DNA from: an uncultured Solirubrobacteraceae bacterium
GTDB taxonomy: Bacteria > Actinomycetota > Thermoleophilia > Solirubrobacterales > Solirubrobacteraceae
Reading direction: 5' to 3'
NCBI GenBank assembly: GCA_963739115.1
Contig: CAVTZB010000002.1
Coordinates: forward strand, 84,338-148,337
Length of the DNA stretch: 64,000 nucleotides
Positions 9,857-58,994 of the stretch are shown here, piece by piece; the stretch's first letter is position 1; the number at the start of each line of letters is the position of its first letter. A program made the position numbers and the translations under genes. Below the pieces are notes generated by a model. That model was given only the letters and a program-made list of their open reading frames with translations. It was not told the origin of the DNA and did not search any database.

Positions 9857-10653
9857 CTCCGCGGCCGACCGGCGAGGCGTTCGAGCTGCACGTGGCGCTC
9901 GCGCTCGCGGAATCCCAGCGAGCGATAGATGTCGATCGCGTGGTAGTCGGGGTCGGCGGCGATCACGAGCGTGCTCGCGCCGAGCTCCGCCAGCGCGTAG
10001 CGGCCAGCGGCTAGCAGCAGGTTGGTGGCGAGACCCTCACGGCGGTGCGCCGGGTGGGTGTTGACGCTCTGAAACCGCGCGAGCCCCGCCCCGGCATCGA
10101 AGATCCCGAGGCTAGAGCGCATCTCACCGTGGCAGAACGCTCCGAACCAGCCGCCGTGTCCCTGCTCGCTCACACGGCGGATCGTTCGCATCTGGCGCTC
10201 GAGGTAGTCGCGATAGCCATCCTCGGGGTTCTCCTCGACCGCGTAGCGCAATGCCGTCGCCTGACGCCAGTCGGCGTCGCTCTGCACCTGTCGAAACTCC
10301 ACCGGCGGTGGCTCGCGCGCCGGCGCGCGCAGGCCGTCGGCGCTCAGCACGGCGTCGATCTCGACCGTCATGCCCGCCGCCCGTAGCTCGTCGAGCTCGC
10401 CTGGATCTCCCGCCGGGCTGTCGATGCCGATCGCGACGTAGTCCGCCGCCGGGAACGCCTCGTGGAAGCGCGCGAGCCAGCGCTCGGCATCGCCGCGCCG
10501 CGGCGGCGAGGCGAACAGCAGGAAGTTGCCCCATCGGTACGCCTGGTTCTCGGCGGTGCGCACGACGAGATGGTCCTCGTGCTCGACGACCTCCGCGCCC
10601 TCGAGCTCGCGCAGGCTCAGGTCGGTCCGCCAGCCGAGCGAGCGTACGTGCAC
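9853..10653 (-). CDS. GNAT-family acetyltransferase
   Basis: C-terminal VNTHPAHRREGLATNLL and AIDIYRSLGF motifs; GTG start at 10653 within the long track ORF. Confidence 0.85.
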   Translation of the reverse strand: MHVRSLGWRTDLSLRELEGAEVVEHEDHLVVRTAENQAYRWGNFLLFASPPRRGDAERWLARFHEAFPAADYVAIGIDSPAGDPGELDELRAAGMTVEIDAVLSADGLRAPAREPPPVEFRQVQSDADWRQATALRYAVEENPEDGYRDYLERQMRTIRRVSEQGHGGWFGAFCHGEMRSSLGIFDAGAGLARFQSVNTHPAHRREGLATNLLLAAGRYALAELGASTLVIAADPDYHAIDIYRSLGFRERERHVQLERLAGRPRS

Positions 10654-16409: not shown

Positions 16410-16859
16410 CTACGCGCCGGACGGCAGCCGGTACTTGCGCGTCGTGGGGGAGCGCTCGAGCAGTCCCAGCTCGACCAGCGTGAACGCGTAGCGATGAGCC
16501 GTGCTCGGGCTCATCCCCAGCTCGTGCGCGAGCTCGACGATCCCGCGCTCGGCACCGTCGGGGCCGAAGCGCGTGAGCAGCGACAGGCCGCGCAGCAGCG
16601 ATCGCGACATGCGCGGGTCGGCGTCGTCGGCCGCCGGATGCCCGTTGTGCGCGTTGTGCGCGTTGTGCGCGTTGCGATCGTGCTCGGGCGCACCATCATC
16701 GAAGGCGGATGTCTCCCTGTCGCGCAGCGGCGCTCGCAGCGCGCTGCCGATCAGGGTGGACACGCTCGGCGCGCGGCTGTTCGCCGCCGCGCGTACGACC
16801 GCGTCGACCTGGGCGGGGGTGAGGGTGACGGAGATGGAATGCCGCTCGTCTTTTGTCAT
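16410..16859 (-). CDS. IclR-type winged HTH without effector domain; RHH-like N-terminus
   Basis: SRSLLRGLSLL...GIVELAHELGMSPSTAHRYAFTLVELGLLERSPTTRKYRL at the C-terminus; only 149 aa. Confidence 0.8.
   Translation of the reverse strand: MTKDERHSISVTLTPAQVDAVVRAAANSRAPSVSTLIGSALRAPLRDRETSAFDDGAPEHDRNAHNAHNAHNGHPAADDADPRMSRSLLRGLSLLTRFGPDGAERGIVELAHELGMSPSTAHRYAFTLVELGLLERSPTTRKYRLPSGA
16643..16674. repeat. In-frame 9-bp tandem repeat (CGTTGTGCG x3.5)
   Basis: Encodes NAHNAHNAHN in the linker of the IclR-like protein. Confidence 0.85.
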
Positions 16860-16923
16860 CGCGCGAGGTTCGCATATTCAGACGATTGTCTGCAAGCGGT
16901 GTTTCTCAGTCCGGACAGACTGC

Positions 16924-16935
16924 TTGCACGTGCAA
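16924..16935. promoter_or_regulatory. Perfect 12-bp palindrome TTGCACGTGCAA in the IclR/DsbA spacer
   Basis: 10 nt upstream of the dsbA-like GTG; CAGAC-GATT-GTCTG (16879-16892) lies in the same 86-bp spacer. Confidence 0.45.
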
Positions 16936-16945
16936 TCATTGTCGT

Positions 16946-17824
16946 GTGAGCACGATCGCCGTCACGCACTTCACAGACCCGGGCTGCCCGTTCGCCTACT
17001 CCGCCAGCCCGGCGCTGGCTGTGCTGCGCTGGCGCTACGGCGATCAGCTCGACTGGCGCCTGGTCACGATCGGGCTGGCCGAGGACCCGCAGCGCTACCT
17101 CGACGCCGGCTACACGCCCACACGCTCGACGATCGGCCAGCAGAGCTACTTCAGGCGCTTCGGCATGCCGCTGCTGATGGAGCCCCGTGCGCGAGTGACC
17201 GCCACCTCGCGCGCCTGCCGCGCGATCGTCGCCACGCGCCGGCTCTACCCCGGCCGCGAGGACGAGGTGCTGCGCGCGCTGCAACTCGCGTGGTTCACGA
17301 CCCCGCTGCTGCTCGACGAGAACGCCGACATCGCGCAGGCGCTCGCGCGTGTCGAGGGGCTCGACGTCGCGGGCGTGATCGCCGCGATCGACGACCCCGA
17401 GACGCTCGCCGCCTATGAGGACGACAAGGAGCAGACGCGCAGCGCCGAGGGCGGGCCGACCGACTTCCAGGGCAAGGCGCGCCAGACCGACGGCCCGGTG
17501 CGCTACTCAGCTCCGTCGCTCGTCTTCCAGAACGGAGCCGGGCTGCGCCTGGAGGCGGGCGGCTTTCAGACGATCGACGCATACGACGTGCTGATCGCCA
17601 ACCTCGACCCGACGCTCGAGCGTCAGGCGCCGCCCGATGAGGCGATCGAAGCGCTGCAGCGGTTCCCCGACGGGCTCGTCACCGCCGAGGTCGCCGCGAT
17701 CCTCGCGCAGAACAACCAGCTCCCCGACCGCGCAGCCGCCGAGCGCGCGCTGATCGAGCTCACCGGAGCGGGCGCCGTGCGCCGCGAAGCGCTCGCCGAC
17801 GACGCGCTCTGGCGAATCGCCTGA
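16946..17824 (+). CDS. DsbA/thioredoxin-fold protein with single Cys
   Basis: VTHFTDPGCPFAY (CxxA rather than CxxC), YSAPSL cis-Pro loop. Confidence 0.78.
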   Translation: MSTIAVTHFTDPGCPFAYSASPALAVLRWRYGDQLDWRLVTIGLAEDPQRYLDAGYTPTRSTIGQQSYFRRFGMPLLMEPRARVTATSRACRAIVATRRLYPGREDEVLRALQLAWFTTPLLLDENADIAQALARVEGLDVAGVIAAIDDPETLAAYEDDKEQTRSAEGGPTDFQGKARQTDGPVRYSAPSLVFQNGAGLRLEAGGFQTIDAYDVLIANLDPTLERQAPPDEAIEALQRFPDGLVTAEVAAILAQNNQLPDRAAAERALIELTGAGAVRREALADDALWRIA

Positions 17825-22089: not shown

Positions 22090-23201
22090 TCGATCGGATT
22101 CAGGAGCTGCGCGGCGAGGCCGAGCGTGCGATCGCGGCAGCCGGCTCGAGCGAGCAGCTCGAGGAGATGCGCGTGCGCTACCTCGGACGCAAGGCCGAGC
22201 TGCCACAGCTGCTGCGCGGGGTCGCAGAGCTCCCGCCCGAGCAGCGCGGACCCGTCGGCAAGGCCGCCAACCAGGCACGCCAGGCGCTCGAGGCGCTGAT
22301 CGGGGCGCGCACCGACGAGCTGGCGGTCGGCGAGCTCGAGCAGCGGCTGCTGGCCGACCGCGTCGACGTCACGCTGCCCGGCGCGCCGGCGCAGCCGATC
22401 GGGCGCCTGCACGTGCTCACCGCCACGCGCCGCGAGCTCGAAGACATCTTCCTCGGCCTCGGCTTCACCGTTATGGAGGGGCCTGAGATCGAGACGGTTC
22501 ACTACAACTTCGACGCGCTCAACCACAGCCCCACGCACCCCGCGCGCGCACGCACCGACACCTTCTACGTCGCGCAGGACGGGTCCGGCGAGCTCGCCCC
22601 GCAGGACGAGCTCGTGCTGCGCACGCATACCTCGCCGATGCAGGTGCGCGCGATGGAAGCTCATCCGCCGCCGCTGTACGTGGTGATCCCCGGGCGCGTC
22701 TACCGGCCCGACTCCGACGCCACGCACACGCCGCAGTTCCACCAGATCGAGGGCCTCGCCGTCGACGAGGACATCACGCTCGCCGATCTAAAGGGCACGC
22801 TGCTGGAGTTCGCGCGCGCGGTCTTCGGTGGCACCGATGGAGGCACGGGCGAGCGCGACGTGCGCCTGCGCCCGCACTTCTTCCCGTTCACCGAGCCGAG
22901 CGTCGAGGTCGACGTGTCGTGCTTCAACTGCAACGGGAAGGGCTTTCTCAGGGACGGCTCGCGCTGCCCGCTGTGCAAGGGCGAGGGCTGGCTCGAGGTG
23001 CTCGGCGCCGGCGAGGTCGACCCCAATGTGTACGCGCACGTGCCCACCACCGATGCCAACGCCCCCGGCTATGACCCCGAGAAGGTGCAGGGCTTCGCAT
23101 GGGGGCTGGGGGTCGAGCGGATCGCGATGCTCAAGCACGGCATCCCCGATTTGCGCCTTTACTACGAGAACGACCTGCGCTTCCTGGAGCAGTTCTCATG
23201 A
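22086..23201 (+). CDS. pheS: Phenylalanine--tRNA ligase alpha subunit
   Basis: YLGRK, NFDALN, LRTHTSP, THTPQFHQIEG, FFPFTEPS, GFAWGLGVERIAML; ATGA overlap with trmH. Confidence 0.97.
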   Translation: MIDRIQELRGEAERAIAAAGSSEQLEEMRVRYLGRKAELPQLLRGVAELPPEQRGPVGKAANQARQALEALIGARTDELAVGELEQRLLADRVDVTLPGAPAQPIGRLHVLTATRRELEDIFLGLGFTVMEGPEIETVHYNFDALNHSPTHPARARTDTFYVAQDGSGELAPQDELVLRTHTSPMQVRAMEAHPPPLYVVIPGRVYRPDSDATHTPQFHQIEGLAVDEDITLADLKGTLLEFARAVFGGTDGGTGERDVRLRPHFFPFTEPSVEVDVSCFNCNGKGFLRDGSRCPLCKGEGWLEVLGAGEVDPNVYAHVPTTDANAPGYDPEKVQGFAWGLGVERIAMLKHGIPDLRLYYENDLRFLEQFS

Positions 23202-23332
23202 CCACAGGCACGTATGCCGGCGCCGGATCTGCGTCCTCGGTCGCTCGCGTGCGTAGCACGCCACGCTCCCTGCGTCCTTGTCCGGCTTGGCCTACGTGCC
23301 TGTGGCGGCGCCCGGAGGTGAATCGGCCATGA
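23198..23332 (+). other. 44-aa bridging mini-ORF from pheS stop (ATGA) to pheT start (ATGA)
   Basis: MTTGTYAGAGSASSVARVRSTPRSLRPCPAWPTCLWRRPEVNRP*; translation unproven. Confidence 0.55.
23202..23305. repeat. Interspersed hairpin element, copy 1 (MIRU/REP-like), pheS-pheT spacer
   Basis: 63-bp core (23231-23293) identical to 28187-28249; perfect 13-bp terminal IR CCACAGGCACGTA/TACGTGCCTGTGG; central hairpin GCGTGC-GTA-GCACGC. Confidence 0.92.
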
Positions 23333-25830
23333 GGGTGCCGCTGCCGTGGCTGCGTGAATACTGCGACCCGCCGCTCGACGTGCGCGAGATCGAGGAGCGC
23401 CTGACGATGACCGGCACCAAGGTCGAGGCGATCCATCACCACGGCGTGCCCGCGACCGACGGCTTCGTCGTCGGTCGCGTGCTCAGCGCCGAGCAGCACC
23501 CCGACGCGGACCGCTTGAAGGTGTGCAAGGTTGACCTCGGCGCCAGCGCAGGAGACGGTGACGGCGACGGCGAGAGTGATTCGAGTCCCGCCCACCCGGC
23601 GACGATCGTGTGCGGCGCGCCGAACGTCGCGGCAGGGCAGACCGTCGCGGTGGCTCGCCCCGGCGCGGTGATGCCCGACGGGACGAAGCTCAAGCAGGCG
23701 AAGCTGCGCGGCGTGGTCTCCGAAGGGATGATCCTGTCCGAGCCCGAGCTCGAGCTCAGCACAGGCTCGGAGGGGATCCTCGTGCTCGATGGGCAACTCC
23801 TCGACGCGGAGCTGGCGCCGGGCACGCCGCTGGCGGAAGTGCTGGCGATCTCGATGGACGTGCTCGAGCTCGAGATCACACCCAACCGGCCGGACTGCCT
23901 CGGCGTCTACGGCGTCGCGCGCGAGCTGCATGCCGCCACCGGCGCTCCGCTCGCCGACGCGCCGTGGAGCGAGGACCCGGGCTCGGACGGTCCGGTGGCC
24001 GGCGCGGAGGTGATCGTCGAGTGCCTGGATCTGTGCCCGCGCTTCACCGCGCGCGTGTTCGAGGACGTCACGATCGCGCCGTCGCCGCCGTGGCTGAAGG
24101 CGCGGCTCGCCGCGGCGGGGCAGCGGCCGATCAACAACGTCGTAGACATCACCAACTACGCGATGCTGCTCAGCGGCCAGCCGCTGCACGCATTCGACCT
24201 CGACCGCGTCGTCGGCGCCCGCCTGACGGTGCGCCGCGCCCACGAGGGCGAGCAGGTGCAGACGCTCGACGGACAGACGCGTACGCTCGACCACGAGATG
24301 GTCGTGATCGAGGACGCCGACGGGCCGACGTCGATCGCCGGGCTGATGGGCGGCGCGCGCTCGGAGGTCGAGCCGGACACCAAGCGCGTGCTGATGGAGG
24401 TCGCCACCTGGAACGGTCCCAACATCCATCGCAGCTCGTGGGCGCTCGGCCTGCGCAGCGAGGCATCTGGGCGCTTCGAGAAGGGGCTGCAGCCGGAGCA
24501 GTGCCTGCACGCGCAGGCGATCGCCACGCAGCTGATGATCGAGCTGTGCGACGCGCGCGTTCTTCCTGGCACGATCGACGTGGGCCTGAAGGGATCCGGG
24601 TGGATCGCGCCGCGTCCCCAGATCGGGCTGCGCGAGGCGCGCGTGCAGGCGATCCTCGGCGTCCCCGTCGCGCGCGAGCGCCAGGCGGAGATCCTGGGCG
24701 CGCTGGACTTCGAGACCGAGCCGCGGGCGGACGGTCTGGAGGTGATCGTGCCGGCGCTCCGCCGCGACGACGTCACGCGCGAGATCGACGTGATCGAGGA
24801 GGTCGCGCGTATCGACGGCCTCGAGCGCCTGCCCGCGACGCTGCCCGCCCGGCGTGGCGCCGCCGGCAGGCTCACGCACGCCCAGCGCGTGCGTCGCGCC
24901 GCCGAGGACGCGCTGGTGGGCCGCGGGCTGTATGAGGTCGTCGGCTGGAGCTTCACCGACCCCGAGCTGCTCGACCGGCTGCTGCTCGGAGCCGAGCACC
25001 CGCTGCGGGACGTGATCGAGCTCGAGAACCCGCTGTCGGAGGGGCAGTCGATCATGCGCCCGACGCTGCTCGGGTCGCTGCTCGACGCCGCCAGGCACAA
25101 CGCCTCGCGCAACGGCCCCGACGTCGCGATCTTCGAGTCGGGCACCGTGTATCGCGCCTCGCACGACGAGCGCCCTGCCGACGAGCACCACGGCCTCGGC
25201 GTGCTGCTGAGCGGCGAGCTGGAGCCGAGCTCGTGGCGGGGCGAGCGCCGCGAGGCCGATTTCTTCGCCGCCAAGGCGCTGCTTGGAGCGCTGCTGGAGC
25301 GTTTCTCGATCGACTGGAAGGTCGAACCGGTCGAGCCGAGCGTGTGGCCGTTCCTGCACCCCGGTCGCAGCGCCGCGGTGATGGTCGACGACGTGCGCCT
25401 CGGGTTCCTCGGCGAGCTGCACCCGCTCGTGGCCGGCGCGTGGGACCTCCCTCATTCGGGGACAGGCGAGCGCACGGCGGCGTTCGCGATCGACCTCGGC
25501 AAGCTCGCCGCGTTCGCCTCGCCGCTGGTGGAGTACACGGCGTTCGGGCCGTTCCCGGCGCTGCGTCAGGACCTCGCGGTGACGCTGCCCGAATCGGTGT
25601 CCGCGGGCGAGGCGCTCGCGCGCGTGCGCTCGGCGGCGGGCGGGCTGCTCGAGGAGGTGCGCGTGTTCGATGTGTACACGGGCGAGCAGGTGGGGGAGGG
25701 CCGGCGCTCGCTCGCGCTCGCGCTGTCCTTCCGCGCGCTCGAGCGCACGCTCACCGACGAGGACGTCGAGCCGCTGCGCGCGAAGATCGTCGCGGCGCTG
25801 CAGGAGATCGGCGGTGAGCTGCGTGGCTAG
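23329..25830 (+). CDS. pheT: Phenylalanine--tRNA ligase beta subunit
   Basis: HPDADRL, IVCGAPNV, EITPNRPDC, INNVVDITNY, QPLHAFD, RFEKG, FDVYTGEQV; RBS GGAGGTG before ATG 23329. Confidence 0.97.
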   Translation: MRVPLPWLREYCDPPLDVREIEERLTMTGTKVEAIHHHGVPATDGFVVGRVLSAEQHPDADRLKVCKVDLGASAGDGDGDGESDSSPAHPATIVCGAPNVAAGQTVAVARPGAVMPDGTKLKQAKLRGVVSEGMILSEPELELSTGSEGILVLDGQLLDAELAPGTPLAEVLAISMDVLELEITPNRPDCLGVYGVARELHAATGAPLADAPWSEDPGSDGPVAGAEVIVECLDLCPRFTARVFEDVTIAPSPPWLKARLAAAGQRPINNVVDITNYAMLLSGQPLHAFDLDRVVGARLTVRRAHEGEQVQTLDGQTRTLDHEMVVIEDADGPTSIAGLMGGARSEVEPDTKRVLMEVATWNGPNIHRSSWALGLRSEASGRFEKGLQPEQCLHAQAIATQLMIELCDARVLPGTIDVGLKGSGWIAPRPQIGLREARVQAILGVPVARERQAEILGALDFETEPRADGLEVIVPALRRDDVTREIDVIEEVARIDGLERLPATLPARRGAAGRLTHAQRVRRAAEDALVGRGLYEVVGWSFTDPELLDRLLLGAEHPLRDVIELENPLSEGQSIMRPTLLGSLLDAARHNASRNGPDVAIFESGTVYRASHDERPADEHHGLGVLLSGELEPSSWRGERREADFFAAKALLGALLERFSIDWKVEPVEPSVWPFLHPGRSAAVMVDDVRLGFLGELHPLVAGAWDLPHSGTGERTAAFAIDLGKLAAFASPLVEYTAFGPFPALRQDLAVTLPESVSAGEALARVRSAAGGLLEEVRVFDVYTGEQVGEGRRSLALALSFRALERTLTDEDVEPLRAKIVAALQEIGGELRG

Positions 25831-26881
25831 CGTCTCCCCGCGGGAGGCGATCGCCTCCCAGCCGAGCGCCCCCGGCGGGCCGCGCGTGATCGTCGCCGGC
25901 GCGACCGGCTTCACCGGCGCGCTCGCCGCGCATCTGCTGTGGCGCCACCCGGACTTCGAGCTCGTGGCGGTGACCGGGCGCTCGGAGCAGGGTCGGCGAC
26001 TGCAGGACGTCTACCCGCGCTACCGCGTGCCGCTGACGATCGAGGCGCTCGAGCTCGAGCGCCTGCAGGGCATCGACGCCGCGGTCGTCGCCTACCCGCA
26101 CGCCGCCGCCGCGCCCACCGTCGCCGCGCTGCGCGAGCTCGGCGCGCGCGTATGCGACCTCAGCGCCGACTTCCGCCTGGGCTCGCAGTCGGAGTACGAG
26201 AAGTGGTACGGCGAGCACCCGCGCCCGGAGCTGCTCGAGGATGCCGTCTACGGGCTGACCGAGCTGCACCGCGAGCGGATCGCAGGCGCTGGGATCGTCG
26301 CCAACCCCGGCTGCTACCCGACCGCGTCGCTGCTCGCGCTCGCGCCGCTCGCGCGCGCCGGGCTGATCGCCGACGTGGTGATCGACGCCAAGCAGGGCAT
26401 CTCCGGCGCCGGGCGCGTGTTCGACGAGACCACGCACCTGTCGATGGCGGGCGAGAACATCGTTCCGTACAAGGTCGCCGCGCACCGGCACACGCCCGAG
26501 ATCGAGGAGCAGTTGCGCGCGCTGGACCCCGCCCACCCCGAGCTGAAGGTCCAGTTCCAGGCCCACCTCGTGCCACTCGACCAGGGCGAGATGGCGAGCT
26601 GCTACGTCACGACCACCCGTCCCGTAGCGGCCGAGGAGCTGCGCGCCATGTACACCGACGCGTACGCCGACGAGCCGTTCGTCGAGCTCGTCGAGCGCCC
26701 GCCGGGCGTGCTCGAGGTGCGCGAGACGAACTTCTGCCGCGTGTTCGCCGCCGCCGACGAGCACACCGGCAAGGTGATCGCGTTCGGGTCGATCGACAAC
26801 CTGTGGAAGGGCACCTCCTCGCAGGCGGTGCAGAACCTAAACCTGATGTTCGGCCTGCCCGAGACTCGAGGTCTGCTGTGA
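25823..26881 (+). CDS. argC: N-acetyl-gamma-glutamyl-phosphate reductase
   Basis: GATGFTG, DLSADFRL, YGLTE, NPGCYPT, SGAGR, HRHTPEI, IDNLWKG. Confidence 0.95.
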   Translation: MASVSPREAIASQPSAPGGPRVIVAGATGFTGALAAHLLWRHPDFELVAVTGRSEQGRRLQDVYPRYRVPLTIEALELERLQGIDAAVVAYPHAAAAPTVAALRELGARVCDLSADFRLGSQSEYEKWYGEHPRPELLEDAVYGLTELHRERIAGAGIVANPGCYPTASLLALAPLARAGLIADVVIDAKQGISGAGRVFDETTHLSMAGENIVPYKVAAHRHTPEIEEQLRALDPAHPELKVQFQAHLVPLDQGEMASCYVTTTRPVAAEELRAMYTDAYADEPFVELVERPPGVLEVRETNFCRVFAAADEHTGKVIAFGSIDNLWKGTSSQAVQNLNLMFGLPETRGLL

Positions 26882-28164
26882 GCACGCCCGACACCGAGAA
26901 GATCGACTCGCGGCCGTTCTTCCGCTCGCGCTGGACGCCCGCGCCGGCGCACGTGCGCGAGCTCGGCCTCGACGCCGGGCTGCCGGCGGGGTTCCGCGCG
27001 GCGGGCGTTGCCGCGGGCATCAAGCCGAGCGGCAGGCCGGACGTCGGCCTGCTCGTGTGCGACTCCCAGGCGCCCGTCAGCGCCGCGCGCTTCACCGCCA
27101 CCGCCACCCCGGCAGCGCCCGTGCTCGTCAGCCGCGAGCGCTGCCGCCTGGACGCGCTGCGCGCGGTGCTCGCGAACTCCGGCTGCGCCAACGCCGCCAC
27201 CGGCCGGCGCGGGCTCGACGACGCCGCCAAGACACAGGGCGCGGCGGCGCTCGCCGCGGGCGTCGACCCCGCCGAGGTTGCGCTCGCCTCGACCGGCGCG
27301 ATCAGCCACGAGCTGCCGGTCGACGCGGTGCTGAAGGGGATCCTCGCGGCGCGCGAGCAGCTGAGCGCCGACGGCGACACGAACTTCCAGCGGGCGATCC
27401 AGACGACCGACGCGTTCGAGAAGCGCGCCAACCTCGAGCTGCAACTGCCCTCAGGCGCGGTGCGCCTGAGCGCGCAGTGCAAGGGCGCGGGCATGATCTC
27501 GCCGCGCTTCGCCACGATGCTGTGCTTCGTCGAGACCGACGCCGCGTTGAGCGCCGAGACCGCCGACCTGCTCCTGGGCGTGTGCGTGAAGCGCTCGTTC
27601 GACCGCGCGTCCGTCGACGGGCAGCTCTCCACCAACGACACCGCGATCCTGATGTGCTCCGGCTCGAGCGGCGTGAGCGTCGCCCCCGAGAGCGAGGACG
27701 AGCTGCGCTTCGGCGAGGCGCTCGACGCGCTGCTGCGGGCGCTGGCGATCATGATGGTCGCCGACGGCGAGGGCGCGGGGCGCAGCGCGCGCGTGATCGT
27801 CCGCGGCGGTGAGGCCGACGGCGCCGAGCTGGCCGCGCGCGCTGTCGCCAACTCCCCGCTCGTGAAGGCCGCGCTGCACGGCGGCGACCCCAACTGGGGG
27901 CGGATCGTGCAGGCCGTCGGCGGCGCCCTCGGGGGGCGCCCCGGCTTCGACGCGCCGCTCGCGCTGGACGTGTCGATCGAGGGGATCCAGGTGTGCGTCG
28001 GCGGGAGCGCGATCCCCTACGACGAGGCCGCGCTCGCTCGCGCGGTGCAGGGCCAGGAGGTCGAGTACGAGGTGACGCTGGGTGGCGACGGCGCTGAGAC
28101 CGAGGTGTTCTTCTCCGATTTGTCGCACGAGTACGTCAGCGTGAACGCGGAATACACGACATGA
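26878..28164 (+). CDS. argJ: Bifunctional ornithine acetyltransferase
   Basis: NSGCANAATG, TTD, KGAGMI..FATML, STNDT, VANSPLVKAALHGGDPNWGR, DLSHEYVSVNAEYTT. Confidence 0.95.
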   Translation: MSTPDTEKIDSRPFFRSRWTPAPAHVRELGLDAGLPAGFRAAGVAAGIKPSGRPDVGLLVCDSQAPVSAARFTATATPAAPVLVSRERCRLDALRAVLANSGCANAATGRRGLDDAAKTQGAAALAAGVDPAEVALASTGAISHELPVDAVLKGILAAREQLSADGDTNFQRAIQTTDAFEKRANLELQLPSGAVRLSAQCKGAGMISPRFATMLCFVETDAALSAETADLLLGVCVKRSFDRASVDGQLSTNDTAILMCSGSSGVSVAPESEDELRFGEALDALLRALAIMMVADGEGAGRSARVIVRGGEADGAELAARAVANSPLVKAALHGGDPNWGRIVQAVGGALGGRPGFDAPLALDVSIEGIQVCVGGSAIPYDEAALARAVQGQEVEYEVTLGGDGAETEVFFSDLSHEYVSVNAEYTT

Positions 28165-28298
28165 ACGCGCATGCCGGCGCTGGACCGCGTCCTCGGTCGC
28201 TCGCGTGCGTAGCACGCCACGCTCCCTGCGTCCTTGTCCGGCTTGGCCTGCGTGTCCATGTCCATCTCGCACGAACGGAGTGCCATGTCTTCGCGTGA
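28161..28298 (+). other. 45-aa bridging mini-ORF from argJ stop (ATGA) into the argB start
   Basis: MNAHAGAGPRPRSLACVARHAPCVLVRLGLRVHVHLARTECHVFA*; stop lies 11 nt after the argB ATG. Confidence 0.45.
28165..28255. repeat. Interspersed hairpin element, copy 2, argJ-argB spacer
   Basis: Same 63-bp core; outer arms ACGCGCA/TGCGTGT differ in sequence from copy 1 but still pair. Confidence 0.92.
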
Positions 28299-32060: not shown

Positions 32061-32115
32061 CCCGCACGGATCGCGCTGACCGTCCGGCGCGACCCATAAG
32101 TTGGCCGGCAGCGTG

Positions 32116-33207
32116 ATGGCCGAAGGCAGCGAGACACCGAACGGCGAACAGGGCCCTGGGCCCGAGGGTCGCCCGCGCCGCAACGAGGGTGACCTGCTGT
32201 CCGAACGCCGTGCCCGCCGTGCCGCCGAGAGCGGCGAGGCCGCGCTGATGCGCCGCGCGGAGGCGGCCGAAGCCACGGTGCAGACGCTCGAACGCCACGT
32301 GGCCAGCCTGCAGCAGCGGCTGCGCGAGGCCGAGGACGATCGTCTGCGGATCGACGAGCTGCTCGAGGTCGAGCGCGCGGCGGCGCTCGAGCGCGAGCAC
32401 GAGCTGCGGCGCGTCAAGCAGCGCGAGTACGCCGAGCAGCAGCTGCGCGTCGAGGCTGAGGAGCGGATGCTGAGCGTCGACCGCGAGAGCCGCGTCGAGA
32501 TCGAGCGGCTCGAGGTGCGCCTGAGTGCCAGCGAGCTCGACGCTCGCGAGCTCGGGCGGCGCATCGAGGACCTGCAGCGCCAGCTCGCTGAGGCCGAGCA
32601 GGAGGTGGCGGCGGAGCGCGCGACGGTGCGTCGCGCCGAGCAGGGCCTGCAGGTGCGACTGACCGAGCTCGAGCGCCAGGTGCTGGAGATCCAGCGCGGG
32701 CTCGACGCCGAGCGCTCGGCGCGTGAGCGCTCGGAGCGTCTGCTCGAGCGCATGCGCGAAGGTCACCGGCGCCTGGAGGCGCTGCTGGGAGAGATGAACG
32801 GCATCGTGGCGCGGGTCACAGCCGCGCTCGCGGGCGGCGGGCGAACCGCGCTCGCGCGCCAGTCGCCGCCGACCAACGCCCCGGAGACCCGAGGCGCCGA
32901 GATGGCCGACGCCCTGGCGGCAGCCGTCGAGCGCCTGCGCGCGCGCGCCGAGGCCGCGCCGCCGGTCGGCGACGCATCGGTCGAGCCGGCGGACGCACCA
33001 GCCGAGCAGGCCGCGCCGGCGGACGCACCAGTTGCGCAGGCCGAGCCGAGCGCCCCCGAGGGCTTTGCCCCGCCGGCCCGCCAGACGGCCGCTCAGGGCC
33101 CGCGCGTCGTGTTCCGCGAGCCCGTCGCGCGGCCTTCCGTGCACAAGCACAGCCTGTCGTGGTTCGCGCGCCGACGGATCAAGCGCAAACAGCGGCGCGG
33201 GCAGTGA
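32116..33207 (+). CDS. Coiled-coil hypothetical protein with Pro/Ala-rich linker and basic tail
   Basis: About 230 aa of E/R/L/A heptad-like sequence; tail HKHSLSWFARRRIKRKQRRGQ. Confidence 0.7.
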   Translation: MAEGSETPNGEQGPGPEGRPRRNEGDLLSERRARRAAESGEAALMRRAEAAEATVQTLERHVASLQQRLREAEDDRLRIDELLEVERAAALEREHELRRVKQREYAEQQLRVEAEERMLSVDRESRVEIERLEVRLSASELDARELGRRIEDLQRQLAEAEQEVAAERATVRRAEQGLQVRLTELERQVLEIQRGLDAERSARERSERLLERMREGHRRLEALLGEMNGIVARVTAALAGGGRTALARQSPPTNAPETRGAEMADALAAAVERLRARAEAAPPVGDASVEPADAPAEQAAPADAPVAQAEPSAPEGFAPPARQTAAQGPRVVFREPVARPSVHKHSLSWFARRRIKRKQRRGQ

Positions 33208-57511: not shown

Positions 57512-57647
57512 GCCGCGCTGTCTTCTCACCCGGCGCCTCGCGCGACGGTGCCGATTCTGCATCGCTAAAGCAGGTCGCCCGTGGGGACGATTTGGACGTC
57601 GGAGCGCGGCACATCGCGCGCCGTCCACAGAGACCCGCTAGCGCCAG

Positions 57648-58994
57648 ATGCCAATCCGCCGAGCCCTCATTGCACTCTTCGTAGCCGCAGCCACGCTGCT
57701 CGCCCCGAGCGTCGCAGCAGCCTCGAACCGCGACGGTGCGCTGCGCGCCTGCGCCGCCGGCAAGCTGAAGCTGCACCTGAACGTCTCACGCGCCGAGACA
57801 TCCGCCGCCGGAGGGCCCGCGGGCACCGCTGCCACGGTCGTCAAAGCCGAGCTCGCGGAACTGCAGGCCGCGGCAAACGGCGTCTGCCCCAGCAGCGCGT
57901 CAGCGTCGGTGCGTGCGCAGGCCAAGCACCTGCTGTCGCTGTACCGGCACGGCTCGCGCGCGAACGCTCATCGCACCCTTAGACGTCTGCTCGCGGCGTT
58001 CCGCACACACGCGCGCAAGAGCTCGAGAGGTCCACGCGCCCGCGTAGCGATGGGAGGCTGCGAATTCGAAGGCTCGGTGCACGTCCACCCAGGGGAAGCC
58101 CCCGGCGTCGCCGCCGACCTCGCGGCCGCGCGCGCGGCGCAGCAGGGAGGCGACGCCGCCGGCGCCCGCGAAGCGCTGAGCGCCGCCGATCGCGCATACG
58201 AAAAGTGGGTGCAAGCGGGCGCAGGGGGAGCGCAGAGCGCCGGGGACTGGCTCGCGATCGCCGCCGCGGCTCAGATGCTCGGGCTGGAAGGGGTCGCCAA
58301 CAACGCCATCGCCCACGCCGATCGGATCGGCACCGAAGCGCTCGAACAGTGCGAGAAGCTCGACCCGTGCTCGCTCACACCGACCAGCGCACGGGGGCTG
58401 CTGCGCACGGTCACGTTCGCGATGCTGCTCGGCATCGAGACGCCGGGCGACGAACAGGCGCTTTCCCCCCTGCTCGAAGCGGCGCAGGAAGTTCTGAACG
58501 GCCGGACGCCCAACGGCTGCGAGCAGTGGTCGCTCACGGCCAGGCTCACGGCATCCGACGGCTGGAGCTTCAACTGGGGCCCCGGGGCGTTCCGCGTCAA
58601 TCGCAAGACGGGCGTGATCGCAGATGCGCCCGGCGCCGGCGCGGGCTGGCCGGGCGAAGTGGCCGCGTTCTCGGGCCCGTGCACAGAAAACGGCGCGGTC
58701 GTCGGAAGCGGCACCGTGCCGGCGGTTCCGTTTCACTTCAACATCTCCGGAAGCGTCACCGCCAGCGGCTTCTCACTGGCGATGCAGAGCAGCGACGCCC
58801 ACATAGCGGTCAGTGTCATCGGCCCGCCTGGGTGCCACTTCCTGGGAGAACTTGGCGAAGAGTTCGTCAACGCGTTCCTGACCTCACCGTTCCCGGTGGA
58901 GCTGAGCGTGTCACCCGGTCAGACGAGCGCCTCGCTCGTGCTGCCGCTCGAAGAAAACGCCGCGATCACGGTCACCGCGACCCGCACGAGCTAG
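57648..58994 (+). CDS. Secreted 8-Cys protein of unknown function
   Basis: Signal peptide MPIRRALIALFVAAATLLAPSVAAA; helical N-half, beta-rich C-half. Confidence 0.72.
   Translation: MPIRRALIALFVAAATLLAPSVAAASNRDGALRACAAGKLKLHLNVSRAETSAAGGPAGTAATVVKAELAELQAAANGVCPSSASASVRAQAKHLLSLYRHGSRANAHRTLRRLLAAFRTHARKSSRGPRARVAMGGCEFEGSVHVHPGEAPGVAADLAAARAAQQGGDAAGAREALSAADRAYEKWVQAGAGGAQSAGDWLAIAAAAQMLGLEGVANNAIAHADRIGTEALEQCEKLDPCSLTPTSARGLLRTVTFAMLLGIETPGDEQALSPLLEAAQEVLNGRTPNGCEQWSLTARLTASDGWSFNWGPGAFRVNRKTGVIADAPGAGAGWPGEVAAFSGPCTENGAVVGSGTVPAVPFHFNISGSVTASGFSLAMQSSDAHIAVSVIGPPGCHFLGELGEEFVNAFLTSPFPVELSVSPGQTSASLVLPLEENAAITVTATRTS

Follow-up and report, generated by a model that had tools for sequence, protein, structure and literature searches.

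Why do two operons of one bacterium carry the same folded spacer between a stop codon and the next start codon? The question arises in a 64,000-nt stretch of the genome of an uncultured Solirubrobacteraceae bacterium (contig CAVTZB010000002.1, positions 84,338 to 148,337 of the forward strand; the whole stretch is called the window here), in which such spacers separate pheS from pheT and argJ from argB. The original prediction, made from the letters of the window, had described them as a structured element resembling mycobacterial MIRUs or REP sequences, inserted twice inside operons. We found that the two spacers are members of a large, dispersed family of structured repeats of ~105 nt and not two chance copies, and that the element comes and goes between close relatives while the operons stay unbroken. 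They are probably copies of a non-autonomous hairpin element of Solirubrobacterales that is polymorphic by insertion and deletion.

Two copies of one hairpin

On the plus strand, the copies share an identical run of 63 nt (23231-23293 and 28187-28249), as originally described. A repeat comparison of the window showed a single mismatch across 68 nt, and the similarity extends leftward through ATGCCGGCGC if one indel is allowed. A 62-nt core had two matches in the window, whereas 100 dinucleotide shuffles contained none. The hairpin of copy 1 spans 23202-23305, and its outer inverted repeat (CCACAGGCACGTA/TACGTGCCTGTGG) is perfect over 13 bp; that of copy 2 spans 28160-28260. Their outer arms are unlike in sequence and paired in both, including a switch from U-A to C-G; the corresponding claims of the original prediction held for both copies. 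The predicted folding energies are -71.4 kcal/mol for copy 1 and -58.5 kcal/mol for copy 2 (z about -2.8).

Copy 1 begins with the base that follows the pheS stop codon (TGA, 23199-23201), and copy 2 begins inside the CATGA that holds the argJ stop codon (TGA, 28162-28164). The sequence CATGA occurs at both 23197-23201 and 23328-23332, and CATGA at 28160-28164 has CATGT at 28284-28288 as its counterpart. A tail of 22-24 nt with a Shine-Dalgarno (SD)-like motif precedes each downstream start codon, that of pheT lying at 23329-23331 (not at 23330) and that of argB at 28285-28287. The parts are as follows; an allele lacking the element in a relative is called empty.

23197-23201 (+): left CATGA direct repeat including the pheS stop; compatible with both edges of the 131-nt gap of the empty allele
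23202-23229 (+): copy 1 left arm, with variable outer stem P1, ATGCC, semi-conserved CGGCGC and the 4-nt variable part of P2
23230-23238 (+): copy 1 conserved 5' junction strand TGCGTCCTC, columns invariant or nearly so
23239-23270 (+): copy 1 apical domain, P3 (GGTCGC/GCTCCC, tandem pyrimidine mismatch) around P4 (GCGTGC-GTA-GCACGC); P3 with compensation
23271-23279 (+): copy 1 conserved 3' junction strand TGCGTCCTT, columns invariant or nearly so
23280-23305 (+): copy 1 right arm with GCTTGG, which forms two conserved G.U pairs with the GG of CGGCGC (columns 22/91 and 23/90)
23306-23327 (+): copy 1 tail, locus-specific, SD-like GGAGG at 23314-23318; missing along with the hairpin in the empty allele
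23328-23332 (+): right CATGA direct repeat including the pheT ATG
28160-28185 (+): copy 2 left arm, its first bases being the CATGA with the argJ stop
28186-28235 (+): copy 2 conserved core (5' junction, P3, P4, 3' junction), the same as copy 1 from 28187
28236-28260 (+): copy 2 right arm; its terminal CATG pairs with the CATG of the left end
28261-28287 (+): copy 2 tail, SD-like GGAG at 28277-28280, and argB ATG; the tail is kept in the orthologous copy of locus L201

A covariance model built from 69 canonical copies (see below) scored copy 1 with 116.8 bits and copy 2 with 114 bits, their reverse strands with ~22 bits, and the next-best match in the window with 26 bits, so nothing convincing was found beyond the two copies. 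This next-best match, at 9896-10001 on the minus strand, has an E-value of 0.003 and many mismatched pairs, and we treat it as probably a chance match rather than a third copy.

A dispersed family of the Solirubrobacterales

Searching a collection of species-representative genomes with a 21-nt bait from the apex (CGCGTGCGTAGCACGCCACGC) recovered at least 119 matching stretches. The record titles name Solirubrobacterales or Solirubrobacteraceae in all of these except L050, titled 'uncultured Actinomycetes bacterium' (L numbers denote loci outside the window). The matches listed come from about 75 assemblies, with at most 6 bait matches per chromosome, and among them the 118 copies with enough flank form at least 84 distinct clusters of upstream flanks, 21 of which are common to 2-6 genomes. 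About 12 further copies that lack the exact bait were found by the covariance model in 0.93 Mb of fetched loci. The search beyond the window that had been suggested along with the original prediction thus places the core at many loci and not just in two copies.

The family is apparently undescribed so far. A covariance-model search of the window against Rfam 15 gave no match on either strand at the gathering score, and only sub-threshold microRNA noise at E-values up to 10. The element was not found in the phage contigs or plasmids searched, nor did the searchable literature yield anything on the core sequence or on Solirubrobacterales repeats, in keeping with the earlier impression that the sequence belongs to no recognised, named family.

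An invariant apex on covarying arms

Copies are about 100-110 nt long and consist of an almost invariant apical domain of ~50 nt atop an irregular stem of ~27 bp. The outermost part is a stem of copy-specific sequence, followed inward by a semi-conserved segment (N-ATG-S-C / G-S-C-C-T-N) in which a U.C mismatch recurs, by CGGCGC facing GCTTG, which yields two conserved G.U pairs and a bulged C, and by a variable stem of 4-5 bp. The junction strand GCGTCCTC then leads into helix P3 (GGTCGC/GCTCCC) with its tandem U.C/C.U mismatch and into hairpin P4 (GCGTGC-loop-GCACGC), after which comes the junction strand TGCGTCCTTG. In the apical domain, two junction strands containing GCGTCCT therefore flank a 6-bp helix with tandem mismatch and a GC hairpin with a variable loop.

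In the alignment of 69 sequences, 86% of the cells held standard pairs, and both sides had changed in 491 cells. Covariation reached 0.448, compared with 0.041-0.080 when the partners were slid by 1-3 columns, and none of 500 shuffles attained it; an alignment of 77 sequences gave similar numbers. Both sides had changed in 20 of the 25 pairs of the outer helix, with four to five pair types in each of the outermost stem columns. Helix P3 was compensated as GGCGGC/GCCGCC in L017, GGCCGC/GCGGCC in L094 and L099, ACTCGC/GCTCGT in L016, CCTCGC/GCTCGG in L128 and GCTCGC/GCTCGC in L205. The idea that the fold rather than the sequence of the arms is conserved therefore persisted with 69 copies instead of two. 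The loop of P4 is free to vary (GTA, ACA, AAA, TGA, CACTC), as judged on copies found via proteins instead of the bait, and the P4 stem and both junction strands are fixed.

The apical domain of some copies contains additional hairpins, at two fixed positions. A small palindrome, CCGATCG-N-CGATCGG followed by CCAGC, is nested at fixed points of the element or lies just upstream in a subset of copies, and a second optional block (GGGGTGGGTGGGC... or GAACTGCCTGTGCCC...) extends or replaces the 3' part of the apical domain in some. Copies with the nested palindrome or the optional block are those of L001, L008, L010, L019, L038, L052, L053, L060, L077, L105, L113 and L119.

The original prediction had taken the fold to be that of the mRNA, and the orientation of the element together with the two fixed G.U pairs does suggest this strand. 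The shared mismatches and the folding energies slightly favour the opposite one. With the two G.U columns set aside, 10 G.U, 94 A.C and 73 U.C cells were counted on the sense strand; the shared A.C and U.C positions become G.U and G.A on the opposite strand, where the mismatch of P3 becomes a tandem G.A/A.G. The mean folding energy is -61.9 kcal/mol for the opposite strand vs -57.1 kcal/mol for the sense strand, which folds better in only 12 of the 69 copies. Rare mismatches, however, show no strand bias (10 of the G.U type vs 12 of the A.C type). Because of this we treat folding of the opposite strand as a lead and not a result, and selection on the bottom strand was downgraded to suggestive.

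Filled and empty sites in relatives

A metagenome scan anchored on PheS covered 80 relatives with 75-88% amino-acid identity. At the ~78 informative pheS-pheT junctions, we counted 34 ATGA overlaps, 26 TGATG overlaps and two near-equivalent ones, i.e., 62 junctions without a spacer. The junction is occupied in the window and in L016, L096 and L128, with a variant in L163; two further loci show forms of decay, one truncated (L146) and one that lost the core by a symmetric deletion (L167). In L167 the spacer retains the outer stem alone (GCACGGTCACGTAT directly followed by ACGTGCCCATGC), the inner ~75 nt being gone at symmetric points, and its tail is homologous to that of L096. Occupied taxa are scattered over the PheS tree, and the nearest neighbours of the window are empty.

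The most telling comparison comes from two soil metagenomes, in which a ~98%-identical contig matches 22982-23196 (4 differences in 215 positions) and 23328-23444 (3 in 117) and skips exactly the 131 nt between them; the five letters CATGA fit either side of this gap. From the exact gap we conclude that the unit inserted or deleted at pheS-pheT is the hairpin plus the tail, between 5-bp direct repeats. In metatranscriptome contigs of more distant relatives, 131-133 nt are skipped at the same place.

The argJ-argB junction could be compared in six relatives with 86-91% identity. It is empty in L200, L202 and L203, which have three different layouts, and occupied in L201 and L205, where the tail is conserved. 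The search for empty sites that had been put forward as a check thus found such sites at both junctions. A further relative (L204, 88% identical) has an unrelated insert of 145 nt at the argJ-argB junction, and a different repeat, with three GC-rich perfect palindromes around GCATGC (for example GGCGCATGCGCC and GGCCGCATGCGGCC), occupies the pheS-pheT spacer of L142, L150, L182 and L127; this repeat was looked for in the window and is absent. Different insertions seem to be drawn to the same junctions.

The original prediction had also held that an ancestral ATGA overlap was duplicated on insertion, and had pointed to A-ending last codons before the element. An ancestral overlap is supported by the bare overlap kept in most PheS relatives, and the A-ending codons are its relics. 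The duplication stood for copy 1, where the 131-nt gap is bordered by CATGA on both sides. It could not be confirmed for CATGA...CATGT of copy 2, because the junctions of the empty relatives are laid out differently and the stem itself includes CATG.

Placement behind stop codons

Considering the copies with a callable gene within 60 nt of their 5' side, 42 of 43 such neighbours are co-oriented and end at the element. The upstream stop codon ends at -3 to +15 relative to the first base of the stem, and on the 3' side both the distance and the orientation of the neighbour vary. The upstream hosts are common housekeeping genes: gyrB, atpG, rpoZ, citrate synthase, ychF, csrA, ETF-QO, and genes for a carboxyltransferase, an ABC ATPase and RNase H. 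The Pfam matches of ten upstream proteins extend to the C-terminal ends of the profiles, and these proteins are therefore untruncated, with native C-termini. Many termini of the element hold stop triplets on both strands (CTAG...CTAG, CTGAG...CTCAG, CATGA...TCATG).

One copy (L073) lies directly behind a csrA homologue; to our knowledge, CsrA is uncommon in Actinomycetota. Read on the opposite strand, the junction strands are AAGGACGC and GAGGACGC, motifs that contain GGA.

In the window, where gene identities are based on translations and Pfam, the order between 17825 and 37000 is thrS, infC, rpmI, a SpoU-type methylase gene, pheS, pheT, argC, argJ, argB, argD, argG and dnaE. The open reading frames (ORFs) at 16829-17821, 32080-33204 and 57642-58991 gave no Pfam match.

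Flanking repeats, tails and tandem copies

Direct repeats of the stop/start overlap surround hairpin and tail at several loci, with lengths of 4 nt (L098), 5 nt (L116), 6 nt (L022, L089), 7 nt (L006), 10 nt (L118, L128) and at least 18 nt (L037). They are confined to operon junctions and absent in most copies. Over all copies, the mean flank repeat is 6.27, a small excess over the permuted null of 5.59. Because the lengths vary and the excess is small, the repeats fit poorly with a transposase of fixed stagger, and a general target duplication of fixed length was rejected, its signal being weak and restricted to operon junctions.

Two origins of the tail were likewise discarded. Its similarity to the upstream 24 nt, of which it could be a decayed copy, is not significant, and carriage from a donor copy does not agree with the finding that tails are shared at orthologous loci only. 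The hairpin-less spacers of L122 and L200 show a weak similarity to the tail (p 0.018-0.1), as would be expected if the hairpin alone were an indel beside an older spacer. We did not adopt this possibility, given the weakness of the L122/L200 signal and the 98%-identical empty allele that lacks both hairpin and tail.

Inner arms together with termini (e.g. CTGAG...CTCAG) recur at unrelated loci of different genomes; L054 and L066, for instance, share CTGAGCCCGCATGGC...CTCAG. This recurrence is as expected of a transposed unit.

Duplications in place were seen at two loci. At L080 (2894-3640), eight tandem units of 94 nt with 98% identity resemble a variable-number tandem repeat, each unit being a copy without the left outer arm plus an 18-nt spacer. 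At L054 (7207-7619), two copies lie ~300 nt apart and a 26-nt flank (CCTGCTCGGCGTGCTTCTTGCTTTTG) is repeated, which looks like a segmental tandem duplication of the element with its flank.

Conservation and transcription of the core

At the argJ-argB locus, the window differs from L201 at 27% and from L205 at 33% of the 4-fold degenerate sites. The 47 non-loop bases of the core show no change vs L201 and four vs L205, two of which form a compensatory pair in P3. The core thus evolves far more slowly than nearby silent sites, which could result from purifying selection or from conversion by other copies.

In four soil metatranscriptome runs, the core had a depth of 47-119 compared with ~10 for pheS/pheT, in contigs that are strandless and may include DNA carry-over. 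These contigs join the core to many different flanks, among them upstream coding ends. As the ratio of core to flank depth is no higher in RNA than in DNA runs, an abundant separate small RNA is disfavoured.

Comparison with known elements

The element shares traits of REP/REPIN, MIRU, ERIC and Correia sequences, yet it fails the defining tests of each. Like the REP sequences and REPINs that accompany RAYT in Pseudomonas and enterobacteria, it is short, non-coding, multi-copy and found at gene ends, forms a hairpin of ~100 nt with common compensatory changes, and appears non-autonomous, long-lasting and largely vertically inherited. However, a REPIN is made up of two REP sequences, conserved and inverted relative to each other, that enclose a less conserved spacer (PMC3116915). 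Here, the long compensated hairpin is present, but conservation is centred on an invariant apex with variable arms, the GCGTCCT motifs are direct and not inverted, and the orientation to the upstream gene is strict. No RAYT was found as a partner in ~1.3 Mb near copies with one IS200-like query sequence.

The parallel with mycobacterial MIRUs drawn in the original prediction remains an analogy. MIRUs are units of 40-100 nt in operons, oriented with transcription and placed at stop/start overlaps, which can form tandem arrays; they are characterised by a short ORF reaching from the stop of one flanking gene to the start of the other. The intercistronic, transcription-oriented position also applies to the Solirubrobacterales element. 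By contrast, a unit-spanning ORF is not a property of this family, which has a long covarying hairpin and belongs to a different taxon, and apart from the single array of eight units nearly all copies, including those in the window, are single. The two ORFs that had been read as a feature preserving translational coupling do exist (23214-23321 and 28161-28298), and two of the three frames are stop-free in the core of every copy. Over the whole element, though, the frame of the bridging ORFs is open in 38 of the 69 copies and the other frame in 40, and the left arm varies by 1 nt between copies. With no preferred open frame, we rejected the bridging ORFs as coding or coupling devices.

ERIC/IRU sequences and the Correia elements of Neisseria are imperfect palindromes of ~100-150 nt in transcribed intergenic regions, co-transcribed and polymorphic in presence, as is the element described here. 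They differ in having conserved terminal inverted repeats and both orientations, and Correia elements in a fixed TA duplication. The profile of miniature elements moved by DDE-type transposases does not apply to a family with variable termini, variable repeat length, polar orientation and no insertion sequence found. Integron attC sites, too, follow an ORF directly on its 3' side and share its orientation, keep structure over stem sequence and contain conserved imperfections, and the hint of better bottom-strand folding is a further likeness. In attC, however, the base is conserved, whereas here it is the apex, and the R''/R' boxes (RYYYAAC / GTTRRRY) are lacking; the termini are CTAG, CTGAG, CATGA and the like, housekeeping genes surround the element, and neither cassette arrays nor an integrase were found. 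An intrinsic terminator was rejected as well, because neither copy is followed by a T-run and both lie in operons before an SD motif and a start codon.

Origin and function of the element

Several observations weigh against a mobile hairpin element. No transposase, integrase or recombinase family was detected by Pfam in the 50 ORFs of the window, in agreement with the original statement that the window has no transposase. Between paired copies of the fetched loci lie ordinary genes, with no autonomous partner among them, and no IS200-like TnpA was found in 10066 ORFs in ~1.3 Mb around copies, searched with a single query sequence; the proposed check for a HUH enzyme or RAYT thus gave no match within this range. 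The flanking repeats have no fixed target-duplication length but vary between 4 and at least 18 nt, and the tails are locus-specific and common only to orthologous copies. The polymorphism at pheS-pheT could reflect a recent loss instead of a recent gain, and the orientation rule could stem from selection instead of targeting. Finally, the constraint on the core is unexpected for a purely selfish, decaying insertion.

This constraint would be accounted for if the element were a cis-acting mRNA module of the host, perhaps exapted, that serves as a 3'-exonuclease barrier, processing site or RNA-binding platform, sets the ratios of cistrons and allows re-initiation. At an orthologous locus the core has changed much less than 4-fold sites have; it is near-invariant across dozens of species, sits strictly in sense orientation at the stop codon with two G.U pairs conserved on the sense strand, and is found in metatranscriptome contigs. 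There is also a precedent in the REP sequences of E. coli, which stabilise upstream mRNA and, when close to the stop codon, affect translation. Nevertheless, most relatives do without the element at the same junctions, and only two of the ~50 gene ends in the window carry it; the A.C and U.C mismatches and the tandem U.C/C.U of P3 weaken the sense RNA, which is the more stable strand in so few copies. We consider this explanation possible but unlikely. A separate gene for a small RNA, in sense or antisense, that lies at gene ends by chance is extremely improbable. It would agree with a conserved structured core with a covarying stem and with its presence in RNA-derived contigs, but no conservation outside the hairpin could represent a promoter or terminator, a T-run is missing, RNA runs do not exceed DNA runs in their core-to-flank depth ratio, and Rfam gave no match on either strand.

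The folding preference of the opposite strand raises a different possibility, namely a site for recombination or transposition of single-stranded DNA on the bottom (template) strand, similar to attC or to the substrates of HUH enzymes (IS200/IS605, RAYT), in which the end of the right arm would guide to the stop-codon region. Read from the bottom strand, the mismatches turn into G.T and G.A, with a tandem G.A/A.G in P3, and the mean energy is the lower one; the outermost pairs often consist of the stop codon and its complement (CTAG/CTAG, CTGA/TCAG, CATGA/TCATG), the conserved mismatches and bulge resemble strand-selective features, and the position 3' of ORFs in their orientation recalls attC. 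Yet the rare and presumably recent mismatches are unbiased, attC boxes, cassette arrays and an integrase are missing among housekeeping neighbours, the single query sequence revealed no HUH gene in ~1.3 Mb, and in some copies, such as copy 1, the stem excludes the stop codon. Our analysis makes such a site distinctly improbable. It also seems quite unlikely, if less so, that the invariant apical domain is a module under purifying selection throughout the order, as a binding or catalytic site in RNA or folded DNA, with the 3' arm pairing with the stop-codon region for targeting.

A non-autonomous, insertion/deletion-polymorphic hairpin element thus remains our preferred explanation. Such an element may spread in trans through an enzyme that would recognise, on a folded single strand, the conserved apical domain and not terminal repeats, and it may be lost by precise deletion between the short flanking repeats. 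At junctions of overlapping genes (ATGA), stop and start both survive because the occupied allele carries the overlap on both sides, with the SD-bearing tail before the restored start. What allows the element to persist in essential operons could be this placement, together with the SD-bearing tail and with the stop triplets found in many termini; persistence might be aided by constraint or gene conversion acting on the core.

Implications

Much work has been done on the small interspersed repeats of proteobacteria, mycobacteria and pathogens, but those of the mostly uncultured Actinomycetota of soil are hardly known. The family described here reverses their usual layout, in that the apex is invariant and the ends vary but stay paired, and its placement is unusually strict, directly 3' of the stop codon and in sense orientation even in essential operons with overlapping genes. 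It provides a natural experiment on how translationally coupled genes tolerate an insertion of 130 nt, and a ready marker for population studies and strain typing of metagenome-assembled genomes of Solirubrobacterales. As neither a known transposase signature nor a terminal repeat nor a fixed target duplication goes with it, the element is a candidate for a new mechanism of mobilisation or of RNA/DNA recognition. If an apical module combined with guide pairing at the stop codon proved true, the element would represent an undescribed kind of mobile DNA, directed to stop codons by a guide.

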